Shown one piece after another: positions 29,004-60,883 of a DNA stretch of 64,000 nt. The notes under the pieces are model-generated. The model was not told the DNA's origin, searched no databases, and saw nothing but the letters and a program-made list of their open reading frames with translations. The stretch's first letter is position 1. Every line of letters begins with the position of its first letter. Both the position numbers and the translations under genes were made by a program. Source of the DNA: an uncultured Gammaproteobacteria bacterium (GTDB lineage: Bacteria > Patescibacteriota > Microgenomatia > UBA12405). The stretch is taken from NCBI GenBank assembly GCA_964448705.1, contig CAYUZS010000003.1, forward strand, positions 73,384 to 137,383. The letters are read 5' to 3'.

Positions 29004-29660
29004 TTATTGGCTGTTTTGTAAACACTTTGACTTGTCCAGACTGTTTACAATTCCGTTGTTGTCATAATCGACATTATCTTTACAGCTTGTAGCTGATGAA
29101 GTAGTTGCCGGTGCTATAGTTCCACCGCCCCCTCTGACACAGATGATATAGTCTGCCGTATTTATTGCACCGTCTTTGTTATAGTCAGTTGTTTTATTGC
29201 AGCTTCCACTTTGAGTCGCTATAGCGGTTGGTGCTGCTGTCGGTGCCAAAGTTGCTGTCGGAGACGCACCTGCACCGGCTTTAAAGGTATAAGGAATCCC
29301 TCCATTATCAAAAACTTCTTCGCCTACTTTAATTCTAAAATAATAGCTTTGACCCGGTTTCAATGAATTTAAAACCACCGAGTGATTAACAGTTGATACC
29401 GTTTCCGGCACTGAAAGCAGTAATGCCGCTGAAGACGTTCCATATTGAACTACACTTTGAGCTTCTTTGTCTGTCGTCCAGGTTATAGTTGCCGATTTAC
29501 CATCTTCTGAAGGATTGGATACTACCCCTTTTGGTTCTGTATTGCCCGATGCTCCGCTCAGATATGTTCTTGCTGTTCCGACTCCCAAAACTCCCAAGAC
29601 ACCTACCAATATTAAAATCAGAATCGTAATAATTGTTTTTATTGATATTTTTTCTTTCAT
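29004..29660 (-). CDS. secreted FN3-like domain protein with C-terminal dockerin-like repeats
   Basis: N-terminal TM/signal sequence and an FN3-like block ATITWTTDKEAQSVVQYG...LKPGQSYYFRI. Two Ca-binding-type repeats: DYNKDGAINTADY and DYDNNGIVNSLD. Confidence 0.6.
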   Translation of the reverse strand: MKEKISIKTIITILILILVGVLGVLGVGTARTYLSGASGNTEPKGVVSNPSEDGKSATITWTTDKEAQSVVQYGTSSAALLLSVPETVSTVNHSVVLNSLKPGQSYYFRIKVGEEVFDNGGIPYTFKAGAGASPTATLAPTAAPTAIATQSGSCNKTTDYNKDGAINTADYIICVRGGGGTIAPATTSSATSCKDNVDYDNNGIVNSLDKSKCLQNSQ

Positions 29661-30415
29661 TATGCAGATTTTAAATATAATGCCACAGACATTCCGCTGA
29701 TACCTAATAATACCAGAGCCAAAGTTTCCGCAATTCCTCCGGTTTCAGGTAGAGTTTCTGCCGTTGTATTGGCTGTAGTTGGTGTTGCAGACACTGTATT
29801 GTTAGTTGTGTTGTTTGTTGAAGTTGAAGTCGGGACCGGAGTTAAAGTTGGAGTCGAAGAGGGTGTAGTCGATGATGTTGTTGATGAAGTTATAGTGTAC
29901 GAACCGCTTTGATTCGATGAACAATCCACCACATCATTACCTGATTCATTAATAATATTAGTCTCAGCTACCGAACCGGCTTGACAGACATAATTTAAGG
30001 TCGCCGTCCCAGCTGCTTTTGCCTTAAAAGTAACTTTCAGAAGTTCATGTTTTGCTACCACTCCCACATAGACATTCGAGCTTAATGAAGGCAGTGTCAC
30101 TTCAAATGTTCCGGCAGCGTTATCGATAATCGGTGAACCTGTTGAGTATGTAAATTGATAGCCGTCATCAGGCACATCAGCTTTCACAATCGACACCACT
30201 TCCAGCTTTGAAGCATCAAATGTCGATTTGATATCCAGACCTATTACTTTATCAGCATTGGAATCAACTCCCAAAATTACGTCAAAAGTATCATTCACTT
30301 GTTTTGTCGCCGAAGTCGGATCCAAAGTAAAATGAGGCGCTGCCCAGGCTTTTACTGGAGTCACCGCCATTAAAGCGGCCGCCATCATTATTACTAATAA
30401 TCTTTTAGAATTCAT
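29660..30415 (-). CDS. cohesin-domain surface protein with LPXTG sortase anchor
   Basis: Signal peptide ending AWA. Cohesin-like block FDVILGVDSNADKVIGLDIKSTFDASKLEVVSI. C-terminal LPETG, then a hydrophobic helix and a Lys. Confidence 0.65.
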   Translation of the reverse strand: MNSKRLLVIMMAAALMAVTPVKAWAAPHFTLDPTSATKQVNDTFDVILGVDSNADKVIGLDIKSTFDASKLEVVSIVKADVPDDGYQFTYSTGSPIIDNAAGTFEVTLPSLSSNVYVGVVAKHELLKVTFKAKAAGTATLNYVCQAGSVAETNIINESGNDVVDCSSNQSGSYTITSSTTSSTTPSSTPTLTPVPTSTSTNNTTNNTVSATPTTANTTAETLPETGGIAETLALVLLGISGMSVALYLKSA

Positions 30416-31039
30416 TTATTTTGTCACCCTAACCGATAATTCATTACTTGAGAATGGCAAAACCTTGCTGGTTGCACTCTCTACAAACATAGTAGCAGAT
30501 TCTTTTGACTCATTGCCAGTACTTATTTTGAATGTAAAATCTCCCGATTTTAATGGCTTTACGGAAAAACTCATCAGGTTTAATTCATCATCCTTGTTTA
30601 CAGTTAAACCATCATCTTTAGAGATCAAAAATGTCGCTACTACTAATCCTTTTGTGTCACTGGCTTTACTAAAAACCGGTTCCGGCAAACGATCATCAAA
30701 AGTTAAACCGCTCACGGTAAAAGCCGAAGGATCATATTCCAGATAAACATTGATTGAATCCAAAGATCGATCCTCCTCTGCTTTTGCTTTAACTTCAATT
30801 TTTTCTGCTTTTCCTACAGTCATTTCCTCAGACGTTGCACCCAATTCAATCATATAAATCGGTTCAGTCGAAGTTGGTTTAACTCCTTCTGTTGGCGTAG
30901 AATTATCTACCACCTCACCTTTCCCGATTTTTACCTTGTTTATATTCAAGATCAACATCAGACTTTCTGCTAATACCAGAACTGCTATTACCGGAATAAC
31001 TTTTTTAACCCAATTTTTATTTTTATTGTTCATAATCAA
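30416..31039 (-). CDS. membrane-anchored cohesin-like domain protein
   Basis: N-terminal TM helix. IEVKAKAEEDRSLDSINVYLEYDPSAFTVSGLTF resembles a cohesin. Confidence 0.5.
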   Translation of the reverse strand: MIMNNKNKNWVKKVIPVIAVLVLAESLMLILNINKVKIGKGEVVDNSTPTEGVKPTSTEPIYMIELGATSEEMTVGKAEKIEVKAKAEEDRSLDSINVYLEYDPSAFTVSGLTFDDRLPEPVFSKASDTKGLVVATFLISKDDGLTVNKDDELNLMSFSVKPLKSGDFTFKISTGNESKESATMFVESATSKVLPFSSNELSVRVTK

Positions 31040-31053
31040 GTTTATTTAAACAT

Positions 31054-32277
31054 TTAATATAGCTGACTCTGTCTTTCACTTAACGATAACATCAGCAGAG
31101 ATAAATCCTGGGATTCCAGCTTACAGTTACCGTTCAAATCAGCTAACATATAACCACCTGTCCCAACTTCAGTTCTTTTAATCGATTCAGTCTTTACAAA
31201 AGAAAAGTCCAAACCGTCCACTACTCCATCTTGGCTTTCAGCAGTAGTGCCTGTCACATCGCCGGATAACAACGGATAACCGGTAAAATCAAAATTCTGG
31301 GTCGTCGCGGCGGAATTTGTCAGTCCGGATAATTCCCCTCCGGCTTTTTCGTAATAATCTGACTGATTATTAACTCCGTACTTCACTTGTAAATGTTTTG
31401 GACTCTTCACAAACACAGCCAAATTGTCGGTTGAATTGAAATTTCCCATATCTAATAAGATTTGGTAAACACCCAAACCATTTTTGTTTTCTTCTAGTTT
31501 ATTTGCAATCACATTTTCAAATACTTTGCTGGTGCCATTAGCTGCTCTTACTGTCACAGTTAAAGGCATATCCTGGGCGTCAGTACAATTATAATCAGCC
31601 CTCATTCCCAAAAAAGACATTTTGAATTTTAGTTGTAGACCTGTTTGCGTCGGTACCTGTGTTGGGGTCGGAGATAACGTCATTACTTGTGTTGGAGTCG
31701 GTGATGGTTGTTGTTCATTAACCAGATCCACAATTTCATAGCTTGTTCCCTCAACGCCTGTTACAGTGATATTTTTGTCGGTGTCACTCGCAGAGTTATC
31801 CCCTGTCATCATCGATTTTGTTTTATCAAGTTTTATTAGTCCCGAACCAAGACTGTTGCCTTTAAAAGTCATCGTCAAAGCTTTGCCTGTTGATAATAGT
31901 TGGTCTGCTGATCTCGATGAAGTTACCACTATCGTGGTACAAGTTTGGTCGGCGACATCGTTGGTTGCCATTATCGGACTGTCTCCAAACCCTGATTCAG
32001 TGTTGGGAACAACGCTTTCCAGGCTAATATTTTTTCCGTAACAAACTGTCGTCTGTACTCCGTCAACTTTAGAATCACTGGAAGTGTAATACCATAATTG
32101 TGTTTGGAAAGTACCTCCAACCACATCCCTGATCTTTGCCCCTGGTAAGACTTTCAAAGTTGAAGTGTCAAATGCCGCCCCTTTTCTCATCTCCTGATTT
32201 TGGTTTACCAAAACAAGACCTCCGACTAAAGCGCCTAAAATCAATAGTATTGGCAATATTATTTTCGTTTTTGTCAT
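31054..32277 (-). CDS. membrane-anchored protein with N-terminal cohesin-like and C-terminal dockerin-like modules
   Basis: TM helix then LVNQNQEMRKGA, a cohesin-like N-terminal domain and PT linkers. C-terminus has DGVVDGLDFS and ADLNGNCKLESQDLS. Confidence 0.5.
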   Translation of the reverse strand: MTKTKIILPILLILGALVGGLVLVNQNQEMRKGAAFDTSTLKVLPGAKIRDVVGGTFQTQLWYYTSSDSKVDGVQTTVCYGKNISLESVVPNTESGFGDSPIMATNDVADQTCTTIVVTSSRSADQLLSTGKALTMTFKGNSLGSGLIKLDKTKSMMTGDNSASDTDKNITVTGVEGTSYEIVDLVNEQQPSPTPTQVMTLSPTPTQVPTQTGLQLKFKMSFLGMRADYNCTDAQDMPLTVTVRAANGTSKVFENVIANKLEENKNGLGVYQILLDMGNFNSTDNLAVFVKSPKHLQVKYGVNNQSDYYEKAGGELSGLTNSAATTQNFDFTGYPLLSGDVTGTTAESQDGVVDGLDFSFVKTESIKRTEVGTGGYMLADLNGNCKLESQDLSLLMLSLSERQSQLY

Positions 32278-32283
32278 TTATTT

Positions 32284-34269
32284 TTATAAACCATTTATAA
32301 AGTTTGTTCTCCAAATAGAGATATCATTTATTGTAATCAAACCATCACAGTCAAAATCTGCCCGCCAATCATTTCTATTAACTTCTCCCAGCTGTCCAGT
32401 AATGAATTCTGATCTCCAAATTGATGCATCATTAATGGTGATTGAACCACTGCAGTCAGCATTTCCTTTCCCTTTTGCCGTCGGATCATTGGCGCATTGA
32501 GTACATTTAAGTGGTAAAGCCGGACAGGCAGTCATATCTGTTGTCCAGGTACCGTTGGCTGATGGACAACAATATTGTCTGCCGCCGCAGGATGCTATTA
32601 GTTTTGCAGCACTACAAATTGTTTCATTAGCTGTACCGTCACTATCCGGAGGAGTGCAGCTTCGCAGGACACTTTGATTAAATCCGTTTGCATTAGTAAT
32701 TCCCGGACACTCTTCACGGCAGCTGTTTCCTGATCCTGTTGTTGGTGTTGCTGTTGGTGTTCTTCCGCCACCGGTTGTTGGTGTTGCGGTAGGTAATCTT
32801 ATTGAACCGCTAGTTGGAGTTAATGTTCTGGTTGGGGTTAATGTTCTGGTTGGACTTAATATTCTGGTTGGAGTTGGAGTATTACATGGATGGTCCAACA
32901 GATTTCCACAGCCTGTACCGGAATAATATCCACCAATGCATCTACAAGTTGCTGTCGGCACTGCAGTTACCGTAATTTGTCGACAACATATTCCTCCGGC
33001 AATTATTCCTGTTCTTTCATAGCCGGATCCGCAGTCAGAAATTCCGTATCGGGCCGTTGATCCGCTGGGACATGAACCTGCTAAAGTTGGAGTTGCTGTC
33101 GGTCTGCGTGTCGGAGTTGCTGTTGGTCTGGTTGTCAGAGTCGGAGTTCGTGGTATACAGCATCTTGAAGACGGAGAAGAACAATTGCTTTGTCCGACAT
33201 CAGTTTCTCCGCTGTTGCATGGTGTCCGACACACTCCAGTTGTGCCATTATACTGACAGTTATTCACCGGGGTTTGTTCACAACAAATTCCACCGGCAAT
33301 ATTTCCTGTCTTATCGTAACCCGAACCGCAATCGGAAATTCCGTATCGGGCTGTTGAACCGCTGGGACAAGCTGCTAAATTACAATCACCAGTGGAAGCG
33401 TTACACGAAGTGCTGCAGGTTTTCACAAATGTCCAAAATTTATTTGTCGACATATTGGCCTGGTTACAGTGATACAGATCATTTCCGGTGCATTTATAGG
33501 CATTTAGAGTACTACAAGCTGAAGAAGTTGGGGTCGGAGTTAAAGCTCTACAACAAATTCCCCCGGCAATTGTTCCTTCGTTTTTATATCCGGATCCGCA
33601 GTCTAGAATTCCGTATCGGGCTGTTGAACCGCTGGGACAAGCCGCTAAATTACAATCAGCTATTGAGGAATTACATGAAGTGCTGCAGGTTTTCACAAAT
33701 GTCCAGAATTTATTTGTCGACATGCTGGCTTGATTGCAGTGATAGAGGTCGTTTCCGGTACATTTATAGGTATTAACTGTACTACAAGCTGAAGAAGTTG
33801 GACCTGCCGTCGGTGCTCTGGTCGGAGTTAATGTTGCTGTTGCACAGCTGGAATCACTGACACAATTTGAAGCCGGACAAGCCGAACTGGAATTTATTGT
33901 TACTGTTGAGGAGTTACATTTCCCACTGCCGCAAGTTCTAACTGTACACTGTCTAGTTGCTGGAGTCGCTGTCGGGTTAACTACTGGCCTTTTACAAATA
34001 CAGGTGGCATAAGAACCGGAACCCGTACAGTCTTGCGGAGTAAATCCGGGACAACATGACAAACCGTTAGCATAAGTTCCACCCTCTGGGACACAGTAAG
34101 ACGCCAAATTTCTGGTATCCTGGTTATTTTGCACCAATTTTGTCGCTGCCGGAACCGCAATTGCCATCAGCAATAAGCCAATTAACAGAGGAATTTCTGC
34201 CAAACCTTTATTTTTCTTAAAAAAAACTGAAAACATTTTTTCTTGTAAAGAATGAGTCATTTTCGACAA
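32284..34269 (-). CDS. large Cys-rich repeat surface protein with PT-rich linkers and C-terminal dockerin
   Basis: 661 aa. TM helix then LVQNNQDTRNLA, two 90-aa tandem Cys-rich units and three CPSGSTARYGxxDCGSGY...IAGGICC modules. C-terminal dockerin repeats NADCSGSITINDASIW and DFDCDGLITINDISIW. Confidence 0.6.
   Translation of the reverse strand: MSKMTHSLQEKMFSVFFKKNKGLAEIPLLIGLLLMAIAVPAATKLVQNNQDTRNLASYCVPEGGTYANGLSCCPGFTPQDCTGSGSYATCICKRPVVNPTATPATRQCTVRTCGSGKCNSSTVTINSSSACPASNCVSDSSCATATLTPTRAPTAGPTSSACSTVNTYKCTGNDLYHCNQASMSTNKFWTFVKTCSTSCNSSIADCNLAACPSGSTARYGILDCGSGYKNEGTIAGGICCRALTPTPTSSACSTLNAYKCTGNDLYHCNQANMSTNKFWTFVKTCSTSCNASTGDCNLAACPSGSTARYGISDCGSGYDKTGNIAGGICCEQTPVNNCQYNGTTGVCRTPCNSGETDVGQSNCSSPSSRCCIPRTPTLTTRPTATPTRRPTATPTLAGSCPSGSTARYGISDCGSGYERTGIIAGGICCRQITVTAVPTATCRCIGGYYSGTGCGNLLDHPCNTPTPTRILSPTRTLTPTRTLTPTSGSIRLPTATPTTGGGRTPTATPTTGSGNSCREECPGITNANGFNQSVLRSCTPPDSDGTANETICSAAKLIASCGGRQYCCPSANGTWTTDMTACPALPLKCTQCANDPTAKGKGNADCSGSITINDASIWRSEFITGQLGEVNRNDWRADFDCDGLITINDISIWRTNFINGL
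33256..33795 (-). repeat. two tandem ~270-nt coding repeats inside the Cys-rich protein gene
   Basis: aa 159-248 and aa 249-338 are near-identical. DNA blocks such as ATTCCGTATCGGGCTGTTGAACCGCTGGGACAAGC recur. A third partial copy lies at 32983-33072. Confidence 0.85.
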
Positions 34270-52563: not shown

Positions 52564-52697
52564 ACTAAGCTTTTATTTTACCCGTCGAAGCTTAAAAAAT
52601 TAATAATAAAATTTTTAAGCGAAGTCGGGTTATCTGATTTGGGGTAAATTTAACCCAAAGCTTGATAAATTTTCAAATTTTTAACTTACGGATTATA

Positions 52698-52946
52698 TCA
52701 CAGCTGGAATTGTCGGGTGTATCTTACCGGTCGGACATCTATCACTTCCCTCCCGGTTATCTTATCAATATAAGGTCCCGATACTGACGGACAACAACTT
52801 TCTCTGAAAGTTCCCATATCAATTGTGATTATCTCTTTCAGTGAAATATCGAAATTTTTTTGGCCCTGTTGTAAAGCTCTTAAATGAATCTCCGTTAGAC
52901 AATTTCCTAACGTTTGTTTGCATATTTCACATTTTTCAATTTTCAT
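52698..52946 (-). CDS. hypothetical small Cys-containing protein
   Basis: 82 aa with CEICKQTLGNC near the N-terminus. Last gene of the ORFan operon. Confidence 0.35.
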   Translation of the reverse strand: MKIEKCEICKQTLGNCLTEIHLRALQQGQKNFDISLKEIITIDMGTFRESCCPSVSGPYIDKITGREVIDVRPVRYTRQFQL

Positions 52947-52959
52947 ATTTTTGATTAAT

Positions 52960-53400
52960 TTATAATTTATTTTCTCTCGCTGAAATAAAAAATTTTCCTT
53001 TCTCCACCTTACTTCCCTGCATCACCGTTAATACCCCTTTATCAGTCCGTAAACACATTACCTCCGTAGTTTCATCTTCTTTAATTTTACCCCTAGTTTC
53101 ACAATATTCTTTATAATTTTTCCAGTCTTGTATTTTCCCCCCGATTTTTTTCCCGGTTAATCTTTTTATATATTCAAAAGTATCTTTCCTCATTTCACAA
53201 AGACTGCAATTAGGTTCCATTCCTCCGGCGAACGGACAAATCTTTCTCGGTACCTCTCCCCTTAAAACCGGACACTGTCCCAATACAAAATTTCTCGAAT
53301 CGAGGGCATCTTCATTTTCCATATATCTTAATACTTGATTTACACCTTCAATCGGCAGTGTTAAACAGTTAATTTCTATTGTTCGGCGGAATGTTGACAT
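52960..53400 (-). CDS. hypothetical Cys-rich protein
   Basis: 146 aa with CPVLRGEVPRKICPFAGGMEPNCSLC. Its start abuts the upstream stop. Confidence 0.4.
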   Translation of the reverse strand: MSTFRRTIEINCLTLPIEGVNQVLRYMENEDALDSRNFVLGQCPVLRGEVPRKICPFAGGMEPNCSLCEMRKDTFEYIKRLTGKKIGGKIQDWKNYKEYCETRGKIKEDETTEVMCLRTDKGVLTVMQGSKVEKGKFFISARENKL

Positions 53401-54545
53401 TACTGACCTCCCCCTGCAGAGATTTTTTTATATGTTTCATTTTTTATTTCCAAATATCTTTGCCTGCTGGCTGCGTTCGCGGCAGCAATCGCATTTCTTA
53501 CCTCTCTTGGAGTCATCGATAAGTCAGGTGATCCGCTAATTTCACCCAATAATCTGTATGTTGTATAAAGATTCAACCAGGATGCCGTCTGGATTGCTCC
53601 TGCCAAACCGGTAATTGCCAGCATTGGAATTGCCGTTCCTGCAACCAAATTTGCCTGTTGAGCCATCACTATCGATCTTGAAGCTGCTGCCATTGCCTGT
53701 ACTGCTGCCGTGTCAAACATATCTGTCGCAGTTGCCTGCAGCACTCCTTTAATCGCTTCATTTGATTCCTTAGCCATTATCGGTATTTTTGACAGCCTGG
53801 TTTTTTCCCTAACAATTTCTTTCGCTATCTCACTTACACTTCTATCCCCCATAGATAATGCCGCTATCATACCCTGTCCTAATTTAGAAAGGTTGTCCTG
53901 AATCTCTTTTACTTCTTTGTCCATACCTAATTGTTTATCATATTTATCGGCATTATCCGCCAATTTTGATCCGCTAGATTTTATTATTTTTCCTGCCGTT
54001 TCCAACATTTTTCCATTTCTCTCCACTGCCCTATCCAAACTGGTCATATTTTGCAATACTGCTTTTTTACTATCGGCCACCACCTTTACTAAATCCACCC
54101 AAGGTTCAAATATTATCGGATATTCTTTGGCTATCTTAGCCATATTTGAGCTACCTCTCTGTTTTGCCAGCGACTCACAAATCTCAAATGCTATTCTCGA
54201 TCTCTCTACCAAATCCTTATTCGGATCCATCACTTTTATCAAATCTTTAGTTGCCACACTCAAATCCACCGCTAAATTTCCACCGGCAATATTAACCTCT
54301 AAACATGTCTTAATTAAAGTCGCATAATAACTGCCGGATAATGCACTGGTATCTAATCCTGTTCCCAAACCCAGATTGGCCATTTCTTTAATCACCCACT
54401 GTTTCTGTTCAAACGTTTCTCTCGGTCCTCCGAATTTTTCAATTTCCTTGCTCTCAATCATTTGATCCCGCAAACTCAGCGCCACATTTTGCACCGGAGC
54501 CGGCTCCACAGTACGATTTCTTAATCTCTCAATAAAATTTGGCAT
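53400..54545 (-). CDS. hypothetical, predominantly helical protein with Ala-rich hydrophobic C-terminal segment
   Basis: 381-aa ORF. No family recognised by eye. Confidence 0.5.
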   Translation of the reverse strand: MPNFIERLRNRTVEPAPVQNVALSLRDQMIESKEIEKFGGPRETFEQKQWVIKEMANLGLGTGLDTSALSGSYYATLIKTCLEVNIAGGNLAVDLSVATKDLIKVMDPNKDLVERSRIAFEICESLAKQRGSSNMAKIAKEYPIIFEPWVDLVKVVADSKKAVLQNMTSLDRAVERNGKMLETAGKIIKSSGSKLADNADKYDKQLGMDKEVKEIQDNLSKLGQGMIAALSMGDRSVSEIAKEIVREKTRLSKIPIMAKESNEAIKGVLQATATDMFDTAAVQAMAAASRSIVMAQQANLVAGTAIPMLAITGLAGAIQTASWLNLYTTYRLLGEISGSPDLSMTPREVRNAIAAANAASRQRYLEIKNETYKKISAGGGQ

Positions 54546-54689
54546 TTTTATTTTTAATCAATAATTTTTAATTTCTAAAAAAAGTCGAAAAAAGGAGGAG
54601 GAAAGTGAAAGTTGGGTTTGGGTTGGGTTTTTGGTGTTTCGGTTTTGTTTGCTTTTTGTTTAATCCCCCCGGAGGGGGTTTCCCCCCTC

Positions 54690-54989
54690 CTAGCCTCCAT
54701 CCAGTCCTTGCAGCCACTCCCTGACGGGGGTGACCAAGAATGCTAAATTCTCAATCGCCAGCAGGGTCAATAAAGCCATGCTGACAAACCAGATCCCCAT
54801 CATCGATAAGATAATGGCGGCACAAACCAACAACACTTCGAGTGCAGATAAGAATCTGCTACTTTCGAAGGCCGCCAATGTGGCAACAACTGCCAGTAGT
54901 ACCATCGCCAGTACGTTCGTTTCCTCCGATGTACCAATCAGGTACATCGAAAAAAACAGTAAACCCGCTTGAATTATATTTTTTAACAT
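54690..54989 (-). CDS. small 3-TM membrane protein
   Basis: Start at MLKNIIQAG, preceded by a purine-rich tract. Three hydrophobic helices and GC-enriched coding sequence. Confidence 0.45.
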   Translation of the reverse strand: MLKNIIQAGLLFFSMYLIGTSEETNVLAMVLLAVVATLAAFESSRFLSALEVLLVCAAIILSMMGIWFVSMALLTLLAIENLAFLVTPVREWLQGLDGG

Positions 54990-55245
54990 TTTAAATTCCC
55001 TTTCTTTTCCCAAAAATCCCCTTTCGAGGTTAATCCAAACCAATTCCAATATATTTTTGGCGCTGGTTTGGACCAACCTCTATCCTTTTTTCGACTTGTT
55101 AAAGTTCTCCCTCTCGGGATATAAAAAAAGCCCCACTCCACCCGGCGCATTACCGAATTTCGTTTAAGGCTTCTGATTGTTTCAAACAACTGCTTTCAGC
55201 ATCTTTCTGAAACATAAGGAAATATACACCACCAATACACACAAG

Positions 55246-56280
55246 TCAATCGTCCAAGCTTACTCTTCTACCCGCTATATAATTCACCGCAGGTGAATAG
55301 AAATACCTGTCATAATAATCCAACATTGCCCCAGACCAACCGGACATAACCAATTGACTAAACGCTTTTAAATTATCTCCACCAATCTTATTGCTAACAC
55401 CAGAATTATAATTTTCAGAAAAGTAGGTAGCTAGCTGTGCTGAAATTAACGCTGTCTTTTCAATAAAAGGCACATATACTCTCTTCATATTCTTAATCAT
55501 ATCGGCAGCCAATCCAGCATTTGTCCTTACCTTTTTTCCTGGTTCAAATTTCTTCCACCCCCATTCTGGATAGGTCGCCCCTCCCAGTCTCCCTTCAACC
55601 AGGGCAGAAAAAGTACTAGTCCGTGACCAGTAACCGCCAGTTGTCCCATCCTCATCTACCAGACCTCCTCCATGAAAACCTCTCTTAATTTTCGAAGCTT
55701 CATTAAGAATGAATAAACCGCCGGCAAAACTGTCCGTCAGATTTCCGACTTTATTCCATTGAGATAAACCCATATCCCGGTTATAAAAAAACAATGGCGA
55801 ATAACCTCTCGTCCATGTCGGATATTTATTCAGATTTATATCTTCTTTGCCAGTCGGCACCACCATAATGTCTGCCATCCTCCAACCATTGCCTATCTCT
55901 ATTGTTGGAGACATCTGATGTAATTGGTATTCTTTTCCATTAACCACCCTTGTTGTTAACATGTTAGATTCAATAACTGGATCTAAAGTAAACCTAGTCG
56001 TCAATTCTCGATTATTAAACGCCCTCCACATATTAGTCACTTCAAATTTTGAATAATCACCCCACTGCGAAATTAACTTTGAAGTTCTTGCCATCCAGGC
56101 AGAGTATTTTGAGGTATCACTAAACAAACTCTTCTCGCTTACTATCTTAACACCCTTAAAAGCACCTTTCCTATCAAACTTAACCAGTGGATTGTCATCA
56201 ATCATTTTTGGAATCAATCCACTGGCCATCAAAAAGACCAATGGGCTTCGGCTAACTAATTCATTTCGACGTTCAATCAT
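55246..56280 (-). CDS. hypothetical soluble protein (~344 aa)
   Basis: Long ORF. Start at MIERRNEL lies 7 nt after the upstream stop. No family recognised. Confidence 0.5.
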   Translation of the reverse strand: MIERRNELVSRSPLVFLMASGLIPKMIDDNPLVKFDRKGAFKGVKIVSEKSLFSDTSKYSAWMARTSKLISQWGDYSKFEVTNMWRAFNNRELTTRFTLDPVIESNMLTTRVVNGKEYQLHQMSPTIEIGNGWRMADIMVVPTGKEDINLNKYPTWTRGYSPLFFYNRDMGLSQWNKVGNLTDSFAGGLFILNEASKIKRGFHGGGLVDEDGTTGGYWSRTSTFSALVEGRLGGATYPEWGWKKFEPGKKVRTNAGLAADMIKNMKRVYVPFIEKTALISAQLATYFSENYNSGVSNKIGGDNLKAFSQLVMSGWSGAMLDYYDRYFYSPAVNYIAGRRVSLDD

Positions 56281-56287
56281 ATTTAAT

Positions 56288-56488
56288 TCAACCCCTTTGG
56301 ATTTTTTCTCTAGAAACAATTACTCCTCCCAGTTTCAAAGCCGCTTGAACCACTGGTCCATATCCACCTTTTACCACTGACTCCACTACTGGCATTTTGC
56401 TTTTTCCTGCCGGGAAAAAATGTCCGGCTTCAGCTTCAATTTCTGCCATTTGTCTACCAGTCGGATACATTCCTTCTTTTGGTTTCAT
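56288..56488 (-). CDS. hypothetical small protein
   Basis: 66-aa ORF, first after the structured RNA region. Confidence 0.35.
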   Translation of the reverse strand: MKPKEGMYPTGRQMAEIEAEAGHFFPAGKSKMPVVESVVKGGYGPVVQAALKLGGVIVSREKIQRG

Positions 56489-56530: not shown

Positions 56531-57231
56531 ACAACCTGCAAAACAATTTTTCCACCACTAGGCGGCTCTTTTTTTTCTTTTTCCACATACTGTGGGGGAA
56601 GGCTTTCGCCCCCCCCACATATACCCTACCGTGGGGTTCCGTCAAATGACGGAGAATCCCACTGGAGCGACCCTAGTCCATTTCGGTCGGCCTCCTTTTG
56701 GGCCCCCCGAATATCAGGAGACTCACCGAGCTCTATCTCTCGGCATCGAGAAAAAAATTTGCAACGGGAGCAATGACCTTCCGGCTGCTGACACTCGCTC
56801 GGTGAAGGTGGTTGTTGAAACACTAACATTTTGCCACCTTGCCCTGGGTAACGCCTTTCCGACGTCGTAGTCGGTTTTCTTCTTTTTTCTTTTGATTTTC
56901 TTTCTGTTTCTTGTCGCTTTTACACATTTGAAGCCCCTTTCTTTTGGTCGAGGAGACCCGATCTTTTTCACCTTCCCCTATGGAAGTGAAACCTCGAAAA
57001 ATCCGTTTCTACGAACTTTTCGAGGCCCACTTCTACTCCCTGCCCGAGTTTTGGGAAGGGTTGGGAAAGAGTTAGAGAAGGGTTAATTTAGTTTTGCAGG
57101 TTGTTAAAGTGCAACCCGGCTAGGCCGGATTTGCCATCCGCCGATGAGGCGGAAGTTTCTCGACTTCAACAGTCCCGCATTCATTGTTTCCATACCGCTT
57201 TTGGTAATCGGCGGTACTGCTGTTTCGAATT
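56531..57231 (-). ncRNA. candidate large structured RNA or giant 5' leader, unclassified
   Basis: ORF-poor, GC-enriched region. A 14-bp long-range helix (56531-56544 with 57091-57104) encloses ~545 nt of hairpins. A GAAA tetraloop and G-U wobbles appear only on the minus strand. A minus-strand promoter lies at 57238-57265. Confidence 0.45.
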
Positions 57232-57237
57232 AGACTT

Positions 57238-57265
57238 ATAATATCACACTATCATGAATATTCAA
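57238..57265 (-). promoter_or_regulatory. sigma70-like promoter TTGAAT-16nt-TGaTATTAT
   Basis: Read on the minus strand. Predicted start near 57231. Confidence 0.35.
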
Positions 57266-57268
57266 TAC

Positions 57269-57295
57269 ACATAAGAGCGCATTCTGCTCTTATGT
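57269..57295. promoter_or_regulatory. perfect 10-bp inverted repeat ACATAAGAGC-N7-GCTCTTATGT (candidate operator)
   Basis: Lies between divergent transcription units. No flanking U-run on either strand. Confidence 0.4.
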
Positions 57296-57465: not shown

Positions 57466-59694
57466 ATGTCTTCTAATTCTGCCTTCACTTTCATGGAAGT
57501 CCGTCTTCCACAAGACAACGAAACTACTCTCGAATCCATGTCCTCTCTCTTGTCCAACTTTACTCAATTTGCCAAACTCAGTTTTTGGGAAAAATTATCC
57601 GGCAAACATTCTCTGGTAGCTTCTCTTGAAGTTGTCCTTATCAACGGTCAAATTCATTTTTATGTTGTCGTCCCCGTCCAAAATTACGATTTCTTTCGTT
57701 CCCAAATTCTCGCCCAATACCCCTCCGCCGTCATCAAAGAATCAAATAATTATTTAATTGACGCAGCAAACAATTTTTCGGAGCACAGCGAACGCGAAGT
57801 TCAATCTCCATCGAACAAGCCCGAAGGTAGCGAGCACCGCAAAAATTTGTTTGCCAGTCAATTAGCTTTAGCCCGCCCATACTCCTATCCCCTCAAAACC
57901 GCCCGTGATTTCCGAGATACCGACCCTCTCTCTTCAGTTCTGGCTCCCCTTTCCCGTTCCACTTCTTCCTCCGATTTTTTTCTCTATCAAATTTTAATCA
58001 GCAATGCTCCTAAAAATTGGCAGGGTAGTATTATTTCCGTCATTCAAAATGGAGTTTTAGTCGACAAAGAAAAAAATTTCCGTCAGGCCCATCCCGACAA
58101 ACAAGTTTTTGAAACCAAAATTCAGTTCCCCGGTCTGTTAACCCAGATCAATATTCTTTCCAATAATCCCACTCTCATCAGTTCGGTCTCCTCCTCTTTT
58201 GGAATCTACACCAGTCCTCGGGGCAATTTTATTCGTACCGTCTCTCCCGGTCTTTTTACCCGTAAAAAAATTCTCAAATCAATTGAAAATCGCCAGTTAA
58301 CCATCAACACCCAAGTTCTAAACACTGAAGAACTGGCTGTTCTTTGGCATTTTCCCAATCAACTCACCAAACTTCCCAACATCGCTTGGGGTAAAAAACT
58401 CTACGCCGATCCGCCGGAAAATCTGCCGGTAGCCACCGGTCTTAGTGATGAAGAAAAATCTCATCTCACCTTTTTTGGCAAAACAGAATTTCATAATCAG
58501 GAAACTATTTTCGGTATCAAAGAGGGTGAAGACCGCCGTCGACATACTTATATTATCGGTAAAAGTGGTACCGGAAAATCAACTTTAATTGCCAACATGG
58601 CTATTGATGACATCCGCAAGGGCCGTGGTGTCGCTATTATCGATCCTCACGGAGACCTTTGCGACAACATCCTCAACTATATTCCCGCCTCCCGCCTCAA
58701 CGATTGCTGTTATTTCAATCCCGCTGATCCCGACTATGTTTATCCTCTAAATGTTTTGGAAGCCAAAAATGAATCTCAGGCAGAACTGGTGGCTTCCGGA
58801 GTTCTTTCTATTTTCAAAAAACTTTACGGCAATTCCTGGGGTCCCCGATTGGAATATATTTTAAGAAATGCCATTCTTACCCTGGTCTTCACCCCGGGTT
58901 CGGACATGACCCATATCGTCGAGATTCTTACCAACAAAGTCTTTCGCGCCAAAGTAGTCGATCAGCTTAAAAATCAAACTCTCAAAAATTTTTGGCTCAA
59001 CGAATACAATGTCATGGATGAAAAGTTCCGGGTGGAAACAATTTCTTCGATCCTCAACAAAGTTGGACAATTTATTGCTTCATCTAATATCAGAAACACC
59101 GTTGCCCACGCTCATTCCAAAATCAATATTGAAGAAATAATGAATCAAAAAAAGATTCTTATTGCTGATTTATCCTCCGGAAAATTAGGTGAAGACAACT
59201 CTGCTCTTCTCGGCGCCATGCTGATTACTCAAATCCAGTTGGCCGCCATGAATCGGGTGTTCCAATCTCAGGACGAACGCTCTGATTTTTACCTCTATGT
59301 TGACGAGTTTCAAAATTTCGCCACCGAAGCCTTTATTAAAATTCTCTCTGAAGCCCGCAAGTTCAAACTTAATCTTATTGTCGCCAATCAGTATATGAGT
59401 CAGCTGGACCGAACCATTCAGGATGCCATTTTTGGCAACGTCGGCTCTTTCCTTTCTTTTGTCGTCGGCAACCAGGATGCTTTTATTCTTCAAAAAGAGT
59501 TTGGCACCAAATTCCCCGCCGAAGATCTGGTTAAAATCGGCAAGTACCAAATAATTTGCAAACTCAGCATTGATTCCGAAACCACCCAGCCGTTTTATGC
59601 CACCACCCTGCCTCCTCTGGATTGCAAAAACCAACAAAAGGATAAACTGATCAAAGTTTCTCAGGAACGTTGGGGAAAGAAAAAGAATTCATAG
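57466..59694 (+). CDS. TraD/VirD4-like (T4SS coupling protein / FtsK-HerA superfamily) ATPase with ~340-aa uncharacterised N-terminal domain
   Basis: Walker A IIGKSGTGKST then AIIDPHGDL, Walker B FYLYVDEFQNF and LIVANQYMSQL. No TM helices seen. Confidence 0.75.
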   Translation: MSSNSAFTFMEVRLPQDNETTLESMSSLLSNFTQFAKLSFWEKLSGKHSLVASLEVVLINGQIHFYVVVPVQNYDFFRSQILAQYPSAVIKESNNYLIDAANNFSEHSEREVQSPSNKPEGSEHRKNLFASQLALARPYSYPLKTARDFRDTDPLSSVLAPLSRSTSSSDFFLYQILISNAPKNWQGSIISVIQNGVLVDKEKNFRQAHPDKQVFETKIQFPGLLTQINILSNNPTLISSVSSSFGIYTSPRGNFIRTVSPGLFTRKKILKSIENRQLTINTQVLNTEELAVLWHFPNQLTKLPNIAWGKKLYADPPENLPVATGLSDEEKSHLTFFGKTEFHNQETIFGIKEGEDRRRHTYIIGKSGTGKSTLIANMAIDDIRKGRGVAIIDPHGDLCDNILNYIPASRLNDCCYFNPADPDYVYPLNVLEAKNESQAELVASGVLSIFKKLYGNSWGPRLEYILRNAILTLVFTPGSDMTHIVEILTNKVFRAKVVDQLKNQTLKNFWLNEYNVMDEKFRVETISSILNKVGQFIASSNIRNTVAHAHSKINIEEIMNQKKILIADLSSGKLGEDNSALLGAMLITQIQLAAMNRVFQSQDERSDFYLYVDEFQNFATEAFIKILSEARKFKLNLIVANQYMSQLDRTIQDAIFGNVGSFLSFVVGNQDAFILQKEFGTKFPAEDLVKIGKYQIICKLSIDSETTQPFYATTLPPLDCKNQQKDKLIKVSQERWGKKKNS

Positions 59695-59711: not shown

Positions 59712-59912
59712 ATGAACGATAAAGTCAATTCTGAAGCCATTCCCTACAACCCTAATCAAATAGAACCTCAAATCATTGATCCTCACACCATTGGTCGTAT
59801 ATCTGCAGCTACCCGTGTTTTTGAGACAGTCCCTGTCAACACTAGAGAGATAATCGATCGTGCTGCTGCCAAAACTGCCCTAGAACAGATCAAAAAACAA
59901 AGGTCAGGCTAA
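59712..59912 (+). CDS. hypothetical small protein
   Basis: 66-aa ORF 17 nt after the ATPase gene. Confidence 0.3.
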   Translation: MNDKVNSEAIPYNPNQIEPQIIDPHTIGRISAATRVFETVPVNTREIIDRAAAKTALEQIKKQRSG

Positions 59913-60057
59913 TTTTTTGTCAACACATTTTCTCTAAAGTAGGAATTTTTTCCCCAACCCTCAAATTATATCCTTTAGCCGGCCTCAAAGAAATTCCTTG
60001 ATTTAACTTTCTTCTCTTTTCATAATCACCCTACATTACATATTAACTAAGTAAATT

Positions 60058-60276
60058 ATGGCCACTTCCAATGCTGAACTTATAGAAAGATTAAATCAAA
60101 CCGGTTCACATATTGTCAATTCTAAAAAAGAAGCCTGTTCTATTTGTCCTTCACTTCCTATTTGCCGTAAGGTTCGTTCCTGTGAACATGTCAGAATTGA
60201 ACCTGGTGATCGAACATGTCTTGAAACTTTAAAATCCGAAGAAGAAACTTCACTTTATAAAAAAATAAAACGCTAG
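60058..60276 (+). CDS. hypothetical small Cys-motif protein
   Basis: 72 aa with CSICPSLPIC (C-x2-C-x5-C). Confidence 0.35.
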   Translation: MATSNAELIERLNQTGSHIVNSKKEACSICPSLPICRKVRSCEHVRIEPGDRTCLETLKSEEETSLYKKIKR

Positions 60277-60345
60277 TCTAAATTTGCCTCTTGACACATC
60301 TTATAAGACATCCTATATTTAATTATTACTAATTAAATAATTCAC

Positions 60346-60522
60346 ATGTCAGAAAAAAAGTTCACTCCTGAATCGGCAGTGAAACCTACCTCGGCATCTC
60401 TGCCGGAAACCATAAAGATCGTAGAATCAGGCGATAAACTAGGGATAGCCATTAGGAAAATTATTCCTCTTGATGCCACTCCGGAAGAACTCCAGATCCT
60501 AGACTTGATACTTAATAATTAA
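60346..60522 (+). CDS. hypothetical small protein
   Basis: Hand-translated 58-aa ORF MSEKKFTPESAVKPTS...LDLILNN, below the track cutoff. Confidence 0.25.
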   Translation: MSEKKFTPESAVKPTSASLPETIKIVESGDKLGIAIRKIIPLDATPEELQILDLILNN

Positions 60523-60691
60523 TCAACCTATATAAATATGCCAGAAAAATTTATAGCCCCTAAAACTTTTTATAAGATAGAATCTCCTACTAGGATTGAT
60601 TTGGAAGTTATTTCTCCCAAACCTAATTTTAGCGGAGAAATTCAAATTCGTTTGCCCGCCGATAAAAAATAAGTTATTTTTTCAAAAAACT

Positions 60692-60883
60692 ATGGCAGAT
60701 TGCAAAGAATTTAACTCCATGTTCGCTGTCGAGGGTAGTTTAAAAACCTGTGGAGTGTGCAGTAAAATAAATGACTGTCAGCTCCCAATGGCACTTCAGA
60801 GGAAGCCATCTATGGAACGCAGTCTCAAACTTCCTAAGCAGGAAAAAGATTTTTACCCTCAATATCCTAACAAAAATCACTAA
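60692..60883 (+). CDS. hypothetical small Cys-motif protein
   Basis: 63 aa from MADCKEF, with CGVCSKINDC (C-x2-C-x5-C). Confidence 0.3.
   Translation: MADCKEFNSMFAVEGSLKTCGVCSKINDCQLPMALQRKPSMERSLKLPKQEKDFYPQYPNKNH

Follow-up and report, generated by a model that had tools for sequence, protein, structure and literature searches.

The window analysed here, i.e., the whole 64-kb stretch of DNA, carries six co-directional minus-strand ORFs at 52698-56488, of 66, 344, 99 (with approximately three TM segments), 381, 146 and 82 aa, and on this point the ORF calls agree with the preliminary description. That description had treated the ORFs as one six-gene operon; the common orientation holds, but at least two promoters are present, and the strong internal promoter P2 (55249-55221) is located at the stop codon of the 344-aa gene. 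The region upstream of the six genes, previously described as a structured RNA, is the 5' leader of a first unit, but it also holds two overlapping ORFs of 34 and 67 aa. The features of the two units and of the neighbouring ATPase gene are as follows:

57238..57265, minus strand: promoter P1, TTGAAT-16-TATTAT with TG; a hairpin (57269-57295) lies immediately upstream
57085..57231, minus strand: structured 5' leader of unit 1, with the invariant CUUUAACAAC at 57100-57109
57091-57104, minus strand: 5' arm of the unit 1 long-range helix, within the leader
56823..56927, minus strand: 34-aa basic ORF (MCKSDKK...), Shine-Dalgarno AAAGGGG, overlooked earlier
56626..56829, minus strand: 67-aa ORF carrying a C-x(n)-CxxCx5C motif, located in the region previously called "structured RNA"
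56592-56618, minus strand: GC-rich GNRA hairpin (segment 56531..56618)
56531-56544, minus strand: 3' arm of the unit 1 long-range helix; the AUG of the 66-aa ORF follows 43-56 nt downstream
56288..56488, minus strand: 66-aa soluble ORF
55246..56280, minus strand: protein A (344 aa), ATG at 56280, or 357 aa from an upstream TTG; soluble, mixed alpha/beta
55221..55249, minus strand: promoter P2, TTGACT-17-TATATT, overlapping the gene A stop codon
54990..55216, minus strand: structured leader of unit 2, with the invariant UUAACAAGUC
55083-55100, minus strand: 5' arm of the unit 2 long-range helix, in the leader
54690..54989, minus strand: 99-aa protein with approximately three TM segments, hyperdivergent, with anomalous GC3
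~54671-54690, minus strand: GC hairpin right after the 99-aa stop, then a CA-rich tract (segment 54579..54690)
54579-54596, minus strand: 3' arm of the unit 2 long-range helix; the AUG of the 381-aa gene follows 34-51 nt downstream
53400..54545, minus strand: protein B (381 aa), all-helical; approximately residues 283-330 form a hydrophobic segment rich in Ala/Gly
52960..53400, minus strand: 146-aa Cys-rich protein, its start overlapping the 381-aa gene stop
52698..52946, minus strand: 82-aa protein with a CxxCx6C...C motif
57466..59694, plus strand: 742-aa soluble VirD4/TrwB/HerA-like P-loop ATPase, divergent from the cluster, with an N-terminal DUF8128-type domain

No significant match was obtained for any of the six cluster proteins in Pfam, PHROGs, NCBIfam or PADLOC, and in a word-indexed search of 5.8 billion proteins, the 344-aa and 381-aa queries each recovered only themselves and one close relative. 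The AF2 model of protein A was usable, and the structure search that had been proposed for this protein returned no match to a known fold, BFVD included. The earlier remark that the genes show no family signature was thereby strengthened, as they are without family, solved-structure relative or fold match. The accompanying remark that almost every other gene in the window is assignable was overstated; no family match was obtained either for the 407- and 661-aa ORFs (31054-34269) or for the small ORFs at 59.7-60.9 kb. Protein A is the founder of a very small orphan family, which belongs to a narrow clade, as it has only approximately eight cluster representatives in 1.84 billion.

In unit 1, conservation of P1 and of the sequence around it extends to L003 and to the distant L016 (relatives are designated here by L numbers and are annotated as "Patescibacteria group bacterium"). 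The leader folds with a z-score of -4.07 against shuffled sequences, contains an internal hairpin with compensatory changes, matches nothing in Rfam, and is approximately 75% identical to that of L016 despite only 27% identity of protein A. ORFs beginning MCKKKK or MCCK, equivalent to the 34-aa ORF, occur in L001/L003 and L016, and a repeated Shine-Dalgarno/start block (D4) is common to the 34-aa ORF and the 99-aa gene. The end of the 34-aa ORF overlaps the start of the 67-aa ORF, whose positional equivalent in L001/L003 has 73 aa and the same Cys motif. The GNRA hairpin is conserved, with changes, in L016. The helix arms (inverted repeat I9) are complementary at 14/14 positions in the window and pair over 16 bp in L003/L004/L006; a register-shifted 13/14 pairing in L016 was read by eye and was not reported by the automatic scan. 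The 66-aa ORF has no Shine-Dalgarno before its AUG; 7 nt separate its stop from the ATG of the 344-aa gene, whose own Shine-Dalgarno lies within the 3' end of the 66-aa ORF. Only the N-terminal GM(Y/F)PT.R..AEIE of the 66-aa ORF is conserved in L001/L003 (E ~1e-5). The gene preceding A in the relatives (family D) has a hydrophobic stretch and then a basic tail at its end, and the stop of this gene abuts or overlaps the A start. Because the 66-aa protein is not hydrophobic, membrane tethering of A is unsupported in the window genome.

In unit 2, P2 agrees with the consensus at 10/12 positions and is conserved in L001, L009 and L016. The leader (folding z-score of -6.29 against shuffled sequences, no Rfam match) forms a covarying hairpin GAGGUUGGUCCAAACCA...UGGUUUGGAUUAACCUC followed by CCUC-GAAA-GGGG, and both conservation and compensatory changes were observed in L009, L010 and L020. 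Nucleotide homology to L001 breaks off near 55017, approximately 28 nt upstream of the 99-aa start (54989), and resumes at the stop codon, near 54692; the 99-aa proteins of the two genomes share 33% identity in a poor alignment. The AUG of the 381-aa gene also has no Shine-Dalgarno. The helix arms (inverted repeat I4) are 18 nt long and 94% complementary in the window, and they are perfect, with compensatory changes, in L001, L009 and the L010 group.

The two units are built in parallel. In both, the 5' arm of a long-range helix of 14-18 bp comes after an invariant UUAACAA; the helix loops out the small ORFs, and its 3' arm is located approximately 35-55 nt before an AU-rich main-gene start without Shine-Dalgarno. 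Exact matches to CTTTAACAAS occur just twice in the 64-kb window, once in each leader. Complementarity of the long-range helices is perfect in four lineages with differing sequences, as seen for the window (AAGUCGAAAAAAGGA / UCCUUUUUUCGACUU), L009 (AAGUCAGAGAAGAU / AUCUUCUCUGACUU) and L010 (AAGUCAGAGAAGGUG / CACCUUCUCUGACUU). The long-range helix is kept by compensatory changes. Its anatomy suggests that it most likely serves as an RNase III-type stem for processing or organisation; alternatively, the inverted repeats could in principle be acting as DNA.

Protein B has its hydrophobicity peak at residues 300-318, and from this single hydropathy peak, the protein is tentatively predicted to insert into the membrane. 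The AF2 model, built from two sequences, was unreliable (pLDDT 40) and predicted only long helices. The hydrophobic segment is almost invariant between the window and L001, and no significant homology was found between B and the "family B" proteins of approximately 400 aa occupying the same position in L008, L009 and L010. The small Cys proteins keep their Cys positions in L001: the 146-aa protein is 74% identical with 7/7 Cys conserved, and the 82-aa protein is 55% identical with four Cys kept.

The preliminary description had proposed an acquired island, GC-richer than its flanks, that interrupts a conserved housekeeping context. Sliding windows do show the GC rise, with values of 0.42-0.47 at 54.5-55.2 kb and 56.25-57.25 kb, but its source is the non-coding leaders and the hypervariable 99-aa 3-TM gene, the GC3 of which is 0.57 (0.52 for the L001 counterpart, approximately 0.35 for the genome). 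The other five cluster genes, with GC of 0.36-0.43 and GC3 of 0.27-0.37, are within the range of the housekeeping genes of the window, and the housekeeping stretches at 49.5-50 kb and 63.2-63.7 kb have GC as high as the cluster peaks; this host-like coding composition does not support an island. At the borders of the block there are no att-like direct repeats and no tRNA. An interruption of the context is not supported either: an A-family cluster is found directly upstream of rpsB in L001, L018 and L008 as well as in L016, and the full order dprA-topA-ATPase-cluster-rpsB-tsf-frr recurs in L016. Related Patescibacteria contigs carry a protein A relative and other orphan genes at matching positions immediately upstream of rpsB, the same position and order being retained in genomes with rpsB only 71-77% identical. 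The gene rpsB is equipped with a separate promoter-like site, and the region upstream of it is conserved.

Between the window and L016, rpsB and the ATPase are each 71% identical and protein A only 27%, so the cluster protein has evolved faster than its neighbours. Taken together, it is largely supported that the cluster is an old, fast-evolving chromosomal resident of one clade of the ultra-small Patescibacteria (CPR) rather than a recent island. Its distribution suggests inheritance in place. At the same time, some mobility or recombination may have occurred, since the dS values relative to L001 form a mosaic across the block (0.58 for gene A vs approximately 1.5 for rpsB and tsf), the cluster of the L010 group is at another locus, beside ychF/rpsF and without the ATPase nearby, and in L009 the cluster directly adjoins the gene of a large serine recombinase.

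It is scarcely credible that the ORFs are chance open frames in a non-coding or RNA-only region. The abundance of conserved RNA structure and the odd GC3 and undetectable conservation of the 99-aa ORF could be read in this way, but the dN/dS values relative to L001 (0.15, 0.17 and 0.11 for the 344-, 381- and 146-aa ORFs) identify these as real genes under purifying selection and refute it for at least three of the six; the conserved motifs retained in diverged protein A homologues of six lineages, the confident AF2 model of protein A, the conserved Cys positions of the small proteins, and the 99-aa TM ORF with a strong Shine-Dalgarno kept by both close relatives point the same way. A less remote, although still unlikely, explanation is that an integrative element, plasmid-, AICE- or virus-like and now decayed or domesticated, makes up the entire rpsB-topA interval (52.6-60.9 kb), with an FtsK/HerA/VirD4-like ATPase, many small ORFs of basic or zinc-finger type, membrane proteins, and protein A as a novel structural protein. 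The signs of mobility and rapid, mosaic evolution given above are consistent with it, as are the foreign-looking GC3 of the 99-aa gene, the many tiny CxxC ORFs on both sides, and the phage homologues of the ATPase (phrog_5156, 4e-63; distantly, gp156 of Bacillus phage G). It is opposed by the host-like coding composition, the retained position and order, and the absence of flanking repeats and tRNA. Moreover, the window has no integrase, terminase, portal, relaxase or replication protein; the first four had already been reported missing, and the accompanying rejection of a prophage and of a classical ICE stands. The A family is missing from IMG/VR, GenBank phages and PLSDB plasmids, the protein A model is unmatched in BFVD, and two IMG/VR matches to the leader pattern were rejected as chance matches inside coding sequence.

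The ATPase, which occupies the same position in L016, matches TrwB_AAD_bind (3e-7) and DUF87 in Pfam, TraD and CD1115 in NCBIfam, and DUF8128, and its divergently transcribed adjacency to the cluster in two genomes raises the question of a divergent accessory module of the Patescibacteria T4SS, in which the 99-aa protein would be a VirB2/VirB3-like pilin or membrane subunit and A and B would be unrecognised channel or assembly parts working with the ATPase. Hypervariable VirB2-like arrays have been described in Microgenomatia, where VirB6 homologues are scarce, for which the authors suggest extreme sequence divergence (Quinonero-Coronel et al. 2025, PMC12102498), and two tandem small TM genes occupy the position of the 99-aa gene in the L010 group. 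Nevertheless, we regard this module as improbable: the 99-aa protein matches no TrbC/VirB2, T4SS_pilin, VirB3 or other Pfam model at E<=1, VirB4 was not found among the window proteins scanned (a subset of ORFs), the ATPase does not have the N-terminal TM helices of canonical coupling proteins, and the L010 cluster has no ATPase nearby. Furthermore, Patescibacteria carry thousands of VirD4-like genes, mostly away from virB4 and possibly exapted for other roles (PMC12102498). Equally hard to credit is a toxin/immunity or defence module in unit 2, with B as a helical membrane-permeabilising effector of the colicin pore or ClyA type and the 3-TM protein as its immunity or specificity partner. The long helices of B with their hairpin-like hydrophobic segment near the C-terminus, the adjoining small 3-TM protein that diverges far faster than its surroundings, a weak PADLOC match of B to PbeC (E 5e-4, 17 bits) and an AbiEii/HTH pair near the cluster in the L010 group all suggest it. 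However, colicin, HBL, ClyA and defence models gave nothing above noise, B lacks a secretion signal, the cluster keeps its place beside ribosomal genes, and ychF separates the defence-like genes of L010 from the cluster; a near-invariant B segment beside an unrecognisably different putative immunity protein is the opposite of co-evolving specificity.

As a whole, the locus is tentatively best explained as a fast-evolving, clade-restricted cluster of two parallel leader units encoding a putative membrane-associated complex. Unit 1 comprises P1, the structured leader, the 34-, 67- and 66-aa ORFs and protein A, and unit 2 comprises P2, its structured leader, the 3-TM protein, B, and the 146-aa and 82-aa Cys-motif proteins. 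Processing at the helix would cut apart the small-ORF segment and the main-gene mRNA, and their relative expression would be set in this way. The 3-TM protein and B would reside in the membrane, protein A would be a cytoplasmic partner co-produced with the small protein encoded upstream of it, and the Cys-motif proteins would be zinc-binding accessory or regulatory subunits. Our best guess is that the cluster proteins form a lineage-specific membrane-associated complex, with a probable role at the cell envelope or host interface; the neighbouring orphan VirD4-like ATPase may be a partner of the complex, given their adjacency in two genomes only. Hydrophobic segments are present in both the 99-aa and 381-aa proteins.

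Several known systems can be compared with this cluster. RNase III stems formed by distant complementary segments occur in rRNA operons (16S/23S), in the phage T7 early region and in the lambda N leader. The cluster helices resemble them in being perfect 14-18 bp duplexes with arms 480-700 nt apart that bracket a defined RNA segment just upstream of the next cistron and are maintained by compensatory change; unlike the rRNA-operon stems, they bracket protein-coding small ORFs, and cleavage at them is a prediction. To our knowledge, known RNase III sites show nothing comparable to the invariant UUAACAA beside the 5' arm. Actinomycete integrative conjugative elements (AICEs) have a single FtsK-like translocase and Spd membrane proteins, and the locus likewise has one P-loop DNA-translocase-like ATPase amid small unannotated and membrane proteins; in contrast to AICEs, it is without int, xis and rep, is syntenic across diverged genomes, and its ATPase is of the VirD4/HerA type without TM helices. 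Small 3-TM proteins can serve as immunity proteins of pore formers, e.g., the colicin E1 immunity protein. With colicins E1/A and the ClyA/Hbl/YaxAB toxins, B shares long helices and the hydrophobic hairpin-like segment near the C-terminus, and, as in colicin-type toxin/immunity pairs, a small 3-TM protein is encoded beside it. Unlike pore-forming toxins, B has no sequence match, receptor or translocation domains or secretion signal, and there is no lysis gene; unlike in toxin/immunity pairs, the putative immunity gene is located upstream, and its divergence is independent of that of the hydrophobic segment of B.

With the orphan VirD4-like T4CP loci and the MPF-FATA T4SS of Patescibacteria (PMC12102498), the cluster has in common a VirD4/TrwB-like ATPase as its neighbour and small hypervariable membrane proteins. 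It differs in that the six proteins match none of the T4SS profiles tried, no VirB4 was seen among the scanned window proteins, the ATPase has a DUF8128-type N-terminal domain and no TM anchor, and the linkage of ATPase and cluster is found in only two genomes. A further parallel is offered by the CPR-enriched protein families, which are mostly unannotated, include a TM helix in 76/106 cases, and were proposed to be vertically inherited and to act in cell-cell or host interaction (Meheust et al. 2019, PMC6744442). They are lineage-restricted and often membrane-associated, and the proteins of the present cluster are likewise lineage-restricted and unannotated, some of them being predicted membrane proteins. 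The A family, confined to its narrow clade, differs from the CPR-enriched families in range, as these extend across the CPR or whole superphyla.

The block of six co-directional ORFs on the minus strand (52698-56488) was confirmed with the lengths reported in the preliminary description, 66, 344, 99, 381, 146 and 82 aa, the 344-aa ORF (protein A) reaching 357 aa if it begins at an upstream TTG. On the downstream side the block is followed by rpsB, tsf, frr and the gene of an RseP-like protease, and on the upstream side by a 742-aa ATPase gene and several tiny ORFs on the opposite strand, then by topA and dprA on the minus strand. Profile searches with the six proteins and four neighbours against Pfam, PHROGs, NCBIfam and PADLOC gave only noise for the six, in agreement with the first impression that none belongs to a recognisable family. 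Scans of the individual A-family members at E ≤ 10 revealed no weak family recurring consistently, and PDB sequence searches with profiles of A, the 381-aa protein (B), the 146-aa protein and the "family B" proteins of related clusters returned only low-complexity and designed-protein noise. No paralogues of A or B were found among all six-frame ORFs of the window.

A word-indexed search of 5.8 billion proteins recovered, besides the queries themselves, one relative of A (84% identity) and one of B (70%). Exhaustive HMMER analysis of 1.84 billion cluster representatives added six credible distant relatives of A (346-465 aa, E from 3e-86 to 3e-7) and one further repeat-rich match that is probably spurious; the resulting alignment of eight A-family sequences contains about 20 invariant residues. 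The genes are real, as follows from the dN/dS values in comparison with L001, a contig of a relative with the same six genes (0.15, 0.17 and 0.11 for the genes of A, B and the 146-aa protein), and from the retention there of all seven Cys residues of the 146-aa protein and four Cys residues of the 82-aa protein. The block is shown to consist of clade-restricted, fast-evolving orphan genes. Neither its protein families nor its leader RNAs could be placed in a known kind, and the novelty claimed here is this failure of assignment, as opposed to a new mechanism.

The AlphaFold2 model of A, obtained with the eight-sequence alignment, was graded usable (pLDDT 77.5, pTM 0.81) and combines a mixed alpha/beta core with a helical bundle at the C-terminus. 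It had no Foldseek match at E ≤ 1e-3 in BFVD or PDB, so that the structural check proposed for this protein uncovered no housekeeping fold in these two collections. Identification of A as an HK97/jelly-roll capsid protein, encapsulin, portal or cell-wall hydrolase was considered and found no support in structure or sequence. The model of B, built from a two-sequence alignment, was unusable (pLDDT 40); by secondary structure prediction the protein consists entirely of long helices, and a single Ala/Gly-rich stretch, at about residues 283-330, is hydrophobic. In the 99-aa protein about three segments are hydrophobic.

The block has at least two predicted promoters, each conserved and followed by a structured leader, which divide it into two units. 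The relevant features of the region are as follows.

57466-59694, plus strand: ATPase of 742 aa, soluble, VirD4/TrwB/HerA-like P-loop type, with an N-terminal DUF8128-type domain and without TM helices
57265-57238, minus strand: promoter P1 of unit 1, conserved even in L016
56500-57265, minus strand: leader of unit 1, about 740 nt, promoter-driven, its first ~145 nt conserved even in L016
57091-57104 / 56531-56544, minus strand: long-range helix of unit 1, 14-bp perfect, enclosing the 34-aa and 67-aa ORFs
56823-56927, minus strand: basic 34-aa ORF (MCKSDKK...) within the leader of unit 1
56626-56829, minus strand: 67-aa ORF with a CxxCx5C motif within the same leader, overlapping the 34-aa ORF
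55249-55221, minus strand: promoter P2 of unit 2 (TTGACT-17-TATATT), overlapping the stop of gene A, conserved in L001, L009 and L016
54579-55249, minus strand: region of unit 2, with the internal P2 and then a ~225-nt structured leader (z -6.3)
55083-55100 / 54579-54596, minus strand: long-range helix of unit 2, covarying, looping out the 99-aa gene

The "structured RNA" that had been placed before the block is indeed structured, but proved to be the 5′ leader transcribed from P1, which carries the two overlapping small ORFs; both have positional equivalents in relatives. Folding of the leaders compared with shuffled sequences gave z-scores of -6.3 for unit 2 and -4.1 for unit 1, and neither leader was matched in Rfam 15 (best scores 11-19 bits against thresholds of 38-60). 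Both units follow the same layout: the promoter is succeeded by a structured leader with an invariant UUAACAA and by the 5′ arm of the helix, then by the small ORF(s) with a shared strong Shine-Dalgarno block (direct repeat D4), a GC-rich hairpin and the 3′ arm, and finally by an AU-rich start lacking a Shine-Dalgarno sequence, that of the 66-aa/A pair or of B. Two blocks, one of the Shine-Dalgarno/start and one of UUAACAA, are duplicated between the leaders (repeats D4 and D14); the leader of unit 2 contains the invariant UUAACAAGUC, and the only two exact CTTTAACAAS sites in 64 kb are those of the two leaders. No clear intrinsic terminator was found between the units, so transcripts of unit 1 may read through into unit 2. 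At the end of the block, rpsB is preceded by a promoter-like site of its own and by a conserved region; the stretch 52604-52706 (minus strand) is 76% identical over 75 nt to the distant contig L018, matches the drum RNA family at 23.6 bits, below the gathering score of 43, and may be an rpsB leader.

Pairing of the arms in the window amounts to 14/14 positions in unit 1 (inverted repeat I9) and to 15 bp, 17/18 positions, in unit 2 (I4). In other lineages the arm sequences differ and their complementarity is still perfect:

Window: 5′ arm AAGUCGAAAAAAGGA, 3′ arm UCCUUUUUUCGACUU
L009: 5′ arm AAGUCAGAGAAGAU, 3′ arm AUCUUCUCUGACUU
L010: 5′ arm AAGUCAGAGAAGGUG, 3′ arm CACCUUCUCUGACUU

For unit 1 of L016 a register-shifted 13/14 pairing was read by eye, the automatic scan having given none. 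The comparison of lineages argues strongly that the long-range helix is functional; inverted repeats working at the DNA level could in principle leave the same pattern. RNase III processing stems are a model for a separating role, and by this analogy the long-range helix would part the small-ORF segment from the mRNA of the main gene.

The cluster recurs in relatives with modular content and in two kinds of location, next to rpsB (L001, L016, L018 and L008) or elsewhere.

Table. Contigs of relatives carrying A-family clusters (contig; A; rpsB; arrangement; percentages are identities to the window)
L001; 84%; 86%; same six genes adjoining rpsB-tsf-frr
L016; 27%; 71%; dprA-topA-small ORFs-ATPase (opposite strand)-small ORFs-A-...-rpsB-tsf-frr
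L018; about 28% (local matches); 77%; variant cluster directly 5′ of rpsB
L008; about 26% (local matches); N-terminal fragment only; variant cluster directly 5′ of rpsB
L010-L013; 35%; not applicable; cluster between ychF and rpsF-ssb-rpsR

The ATPase keeps its position in L016, with 71% identity to that of the window. In relatives, A is preceded by a "family-D" protein whose C-terminal end consists of a hydrophobic stretch and then a basic tail, and whose stop abuts or overlaps the start of A; in the one full-length example, from L010, a hydrophobic segment at the N-terminus and a Pro/Thr-rich stretch are present as well. These clusters further encode one or two small proteins with TM segments, a helical "family B" protein of ~400 aa and a "family C" protein of ~360 aa, and no Pfam domains were found in the family-D, small TM, family-B or family-C proteins. 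B of the window sits at the family-B position, and the intergenic DNA before it is conserved with L009. A family-B identity of B was tried against L008, L009 and L010 and rejected (hhalign probability 0.6%, HMM scores no better than shuffled). Since the link is limited to position, architecture and the conserved upstream intergenic stretch, B is treated as a positional analogue only and homology is not claimed. The NCBI records of the L010 group and the single GTDB match are labelled "Patescibacteria group bacterium". At L010 5156-6446, and at the equivalent places of L012 and L013, genes for an HTH protein and an AbiEii toxin, together with an unannotated 191-aa ORF, are found two genes 5′ of the cluster, with ychF in between.

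The preliminary description had taken the GC-rich part of the block as a sign of an acquired island. The sliding-window rise in GC is there, but it arises from the two non-coding leaders and the 99-aa gene; five of the six genes are host-like in composition (GC 0.36-0.43, GC3 0.27-0.37), within the spread of the housekeeping genes of the window, whose overall GC is 0.385. The 99-aa gene with three TM segments (54690-54989, minus strand) is the only one of the six that deviates in coding composition; its GC3 is 0.57 (0.52 in L001), compared with about 0.35 for the genome. It is unalignable with its L001 counterpart as DNA, whereas both flanks are 75-85% identical: nucleotide homology ends ~28 nt 5′ of the start codon and restarts at the stop codon. 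Diversifying selection, cassette replacement and RNA constraints are candidate causes of the divergence. A DGR or shufflon was rejected, there being no reverse transcriptase or invertase and no inverted variants among the contigs.

Borders, the mobility-gene search and synteny, like composition, do not support acquisition as an island, and a domesticated or decayed integrative element has to be weighed against the same observations. Only short, imperfect A/T-rich repeats and no att-like ones flank the block, the closest tRNA genes are those at 12.9 and 16.3 kb, no empty site was seen among the few genomes available, and, as had been noted from the start, mobility-gene domains are absent from every ORF between rpsB and topA. 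The A family is absent from IMG/VR (searched with single proteins and the alignment), GenBank phages and PLSDB (tblastn). Two matches of the leader DNA pattern in IMG/VR were dismissed as chance occurrences within coding sequence. Nor is an interruption of a conserved housekeeping context, as was first thought, supported, the order dprA-topA...rpsB-tsf-frr with the A cluster recurring in L016. The genomic context of the A-family relatives is decisive here: judged by it, the block is an old resident of the chromosome of this clade, and its proteins are estimated to diverge several-fold faster than their neighbours. There is some support for the integrative element as well, and some mobility or recombination may have taken place, in view of the L010-group locus, a serine recombinase in L009 and mosaic dS between the window and L001. 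The large serine recombinase gene (L009 3364-4419, minus strand), convergent with and immediately after a family-B gene, is the only mobility gene observed beside any cluster copy; protein A of L009 is the closest distant relative (41% identity). By gene, dS is lowest for A (0.58), higher for B (1.13) and reaches ~1.5-1.6 in the 146-aa gene, rpsB and tsf; the low value of A hints at recent recombination of this segment or synonymous-site selection.

The products of the block would form a membrane-associated complex at the envelope or host interface, a low-confidence reading in which the adjacent ATPase may be a partner of the complex and the Cys-motif proteins may be zinc-binding accessory or regulatory subunits. 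The membrane complex fits the general picture (PMC6744442) that unknown families enriched in CPR consist for the most part of membrane proteins with a proposed role in cell-cell interaction. A toxin/immunity or defence module also has some support. With respect to a helical-bundle fold with an insertable hydrophobic hairpin, the usable data on B are the long helices of its pLDDT 40 model from two sequences and a hydropathy peak at 300-318. As a pore-forming toxin, B is opposed by the lack of a colicin pore, HBL or ClyA match in Pfam and PDB-sequence searches, and among the defence systems of PADLOC-DB 2.0 it gave only a 17-bit PbeC match, the mad8 and HerA matches being those of the P-loop region of the neighbouring ATPase. 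A divergent T4SS accessory module draws some support from this ATPase, a VirD4-type coupling protein, though without N-terminal TM helices, which matches TrwB_AAD_bind (3e-7, above the curated cut-off) and also DUF87. It scores below the cut-offs of NCBIfam TraD and CD1115, and no VirB4 was found among 20 window proteins scanned. The 99/128-aa ORF matched no Pfam family at E ≤ 1 and only noise in NCBIfam, with VirB2/TrbC, T4SS_pilin and VirB3 unmatched. Phage homologues of the ATPase are distant (phrog_5156, 4e-63; Bacillus phage G gp156, aligned over 91% of its length at 23% identity), and a literature search on DUF8128 returned nothing. It would be a long shot to see in the whole rpsB-topA interval an unrecognised VirB4-less envelope machine of a Patescibacteria clade that moves DNA or proteins between episymbiont and host, built from the soluble VirD4/HerA-like ATPase, A with its novel fold, a membrane-inserting helical B and a hypervariable small membrane subunit, its expression being set by leader RNAs of a new class that combine UUAACAA with a long-range processing helix.

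Two other sets of genes in the window are worth recording. A run of tiny ORFs lies 3′ of the ATPase gene (59712-60883, plus strand), two of which (60058-60276 and 60596-60883) carry the CxxCx5C motif of the 67-aa ORF, and the small ORFs with this motif may encode small zinc-binding proteins that are paralogues of one another; in relatives, a different CxxC...CGDC protein, absent from the window, is encoded between the ATPase and P1 (L016 6401-6796; L003 3-464). A second unannotated patch (29004-34269, minus strand), with 407-aa and 661-aa ORFs lacking a Pfam match (GC2 of 0.64 for the latter), stands beside cohesin-, dockerin/fn3- and Y_Y_Y-domain proteins and is probably a cell-surface protein cluster.

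The preliminary observation was largely right overall. Patescibacteria account for a large part of bacterial diversity and are host-dependent, and the molecules of their host interface are mostly unknown. To this subject the locus offers compact conserved proteins without a known family, one of them with a confident model and no known fold, and two paralogous leader RNAs with long-range helices backed by covariation; the leader-RNA pair and the model of A without a detectable structural relative are the most reusable results. Orphan operons are common in these genomes, the A family is limited to a narrow, rarely sampled clade and no function is assigned, so the locus is a well-defined lead rather than a surprise. 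It also adjoins an orphan VirD4-like ATPase. A 2025 survey counted 5,713 VirD4-like genes in 2,918 Patescibacteria genomes, most of them far from virB4, suggested exaptation and described hypervariable VirB2-like arrays in Microgenomatia (PMC12102498). Compared with the Patescibacteria/MPF-FATA T4SS, the 99-aa protein differs in having no VirB2/VirB3 match, and the likeness lies in the VirD4-type protein.
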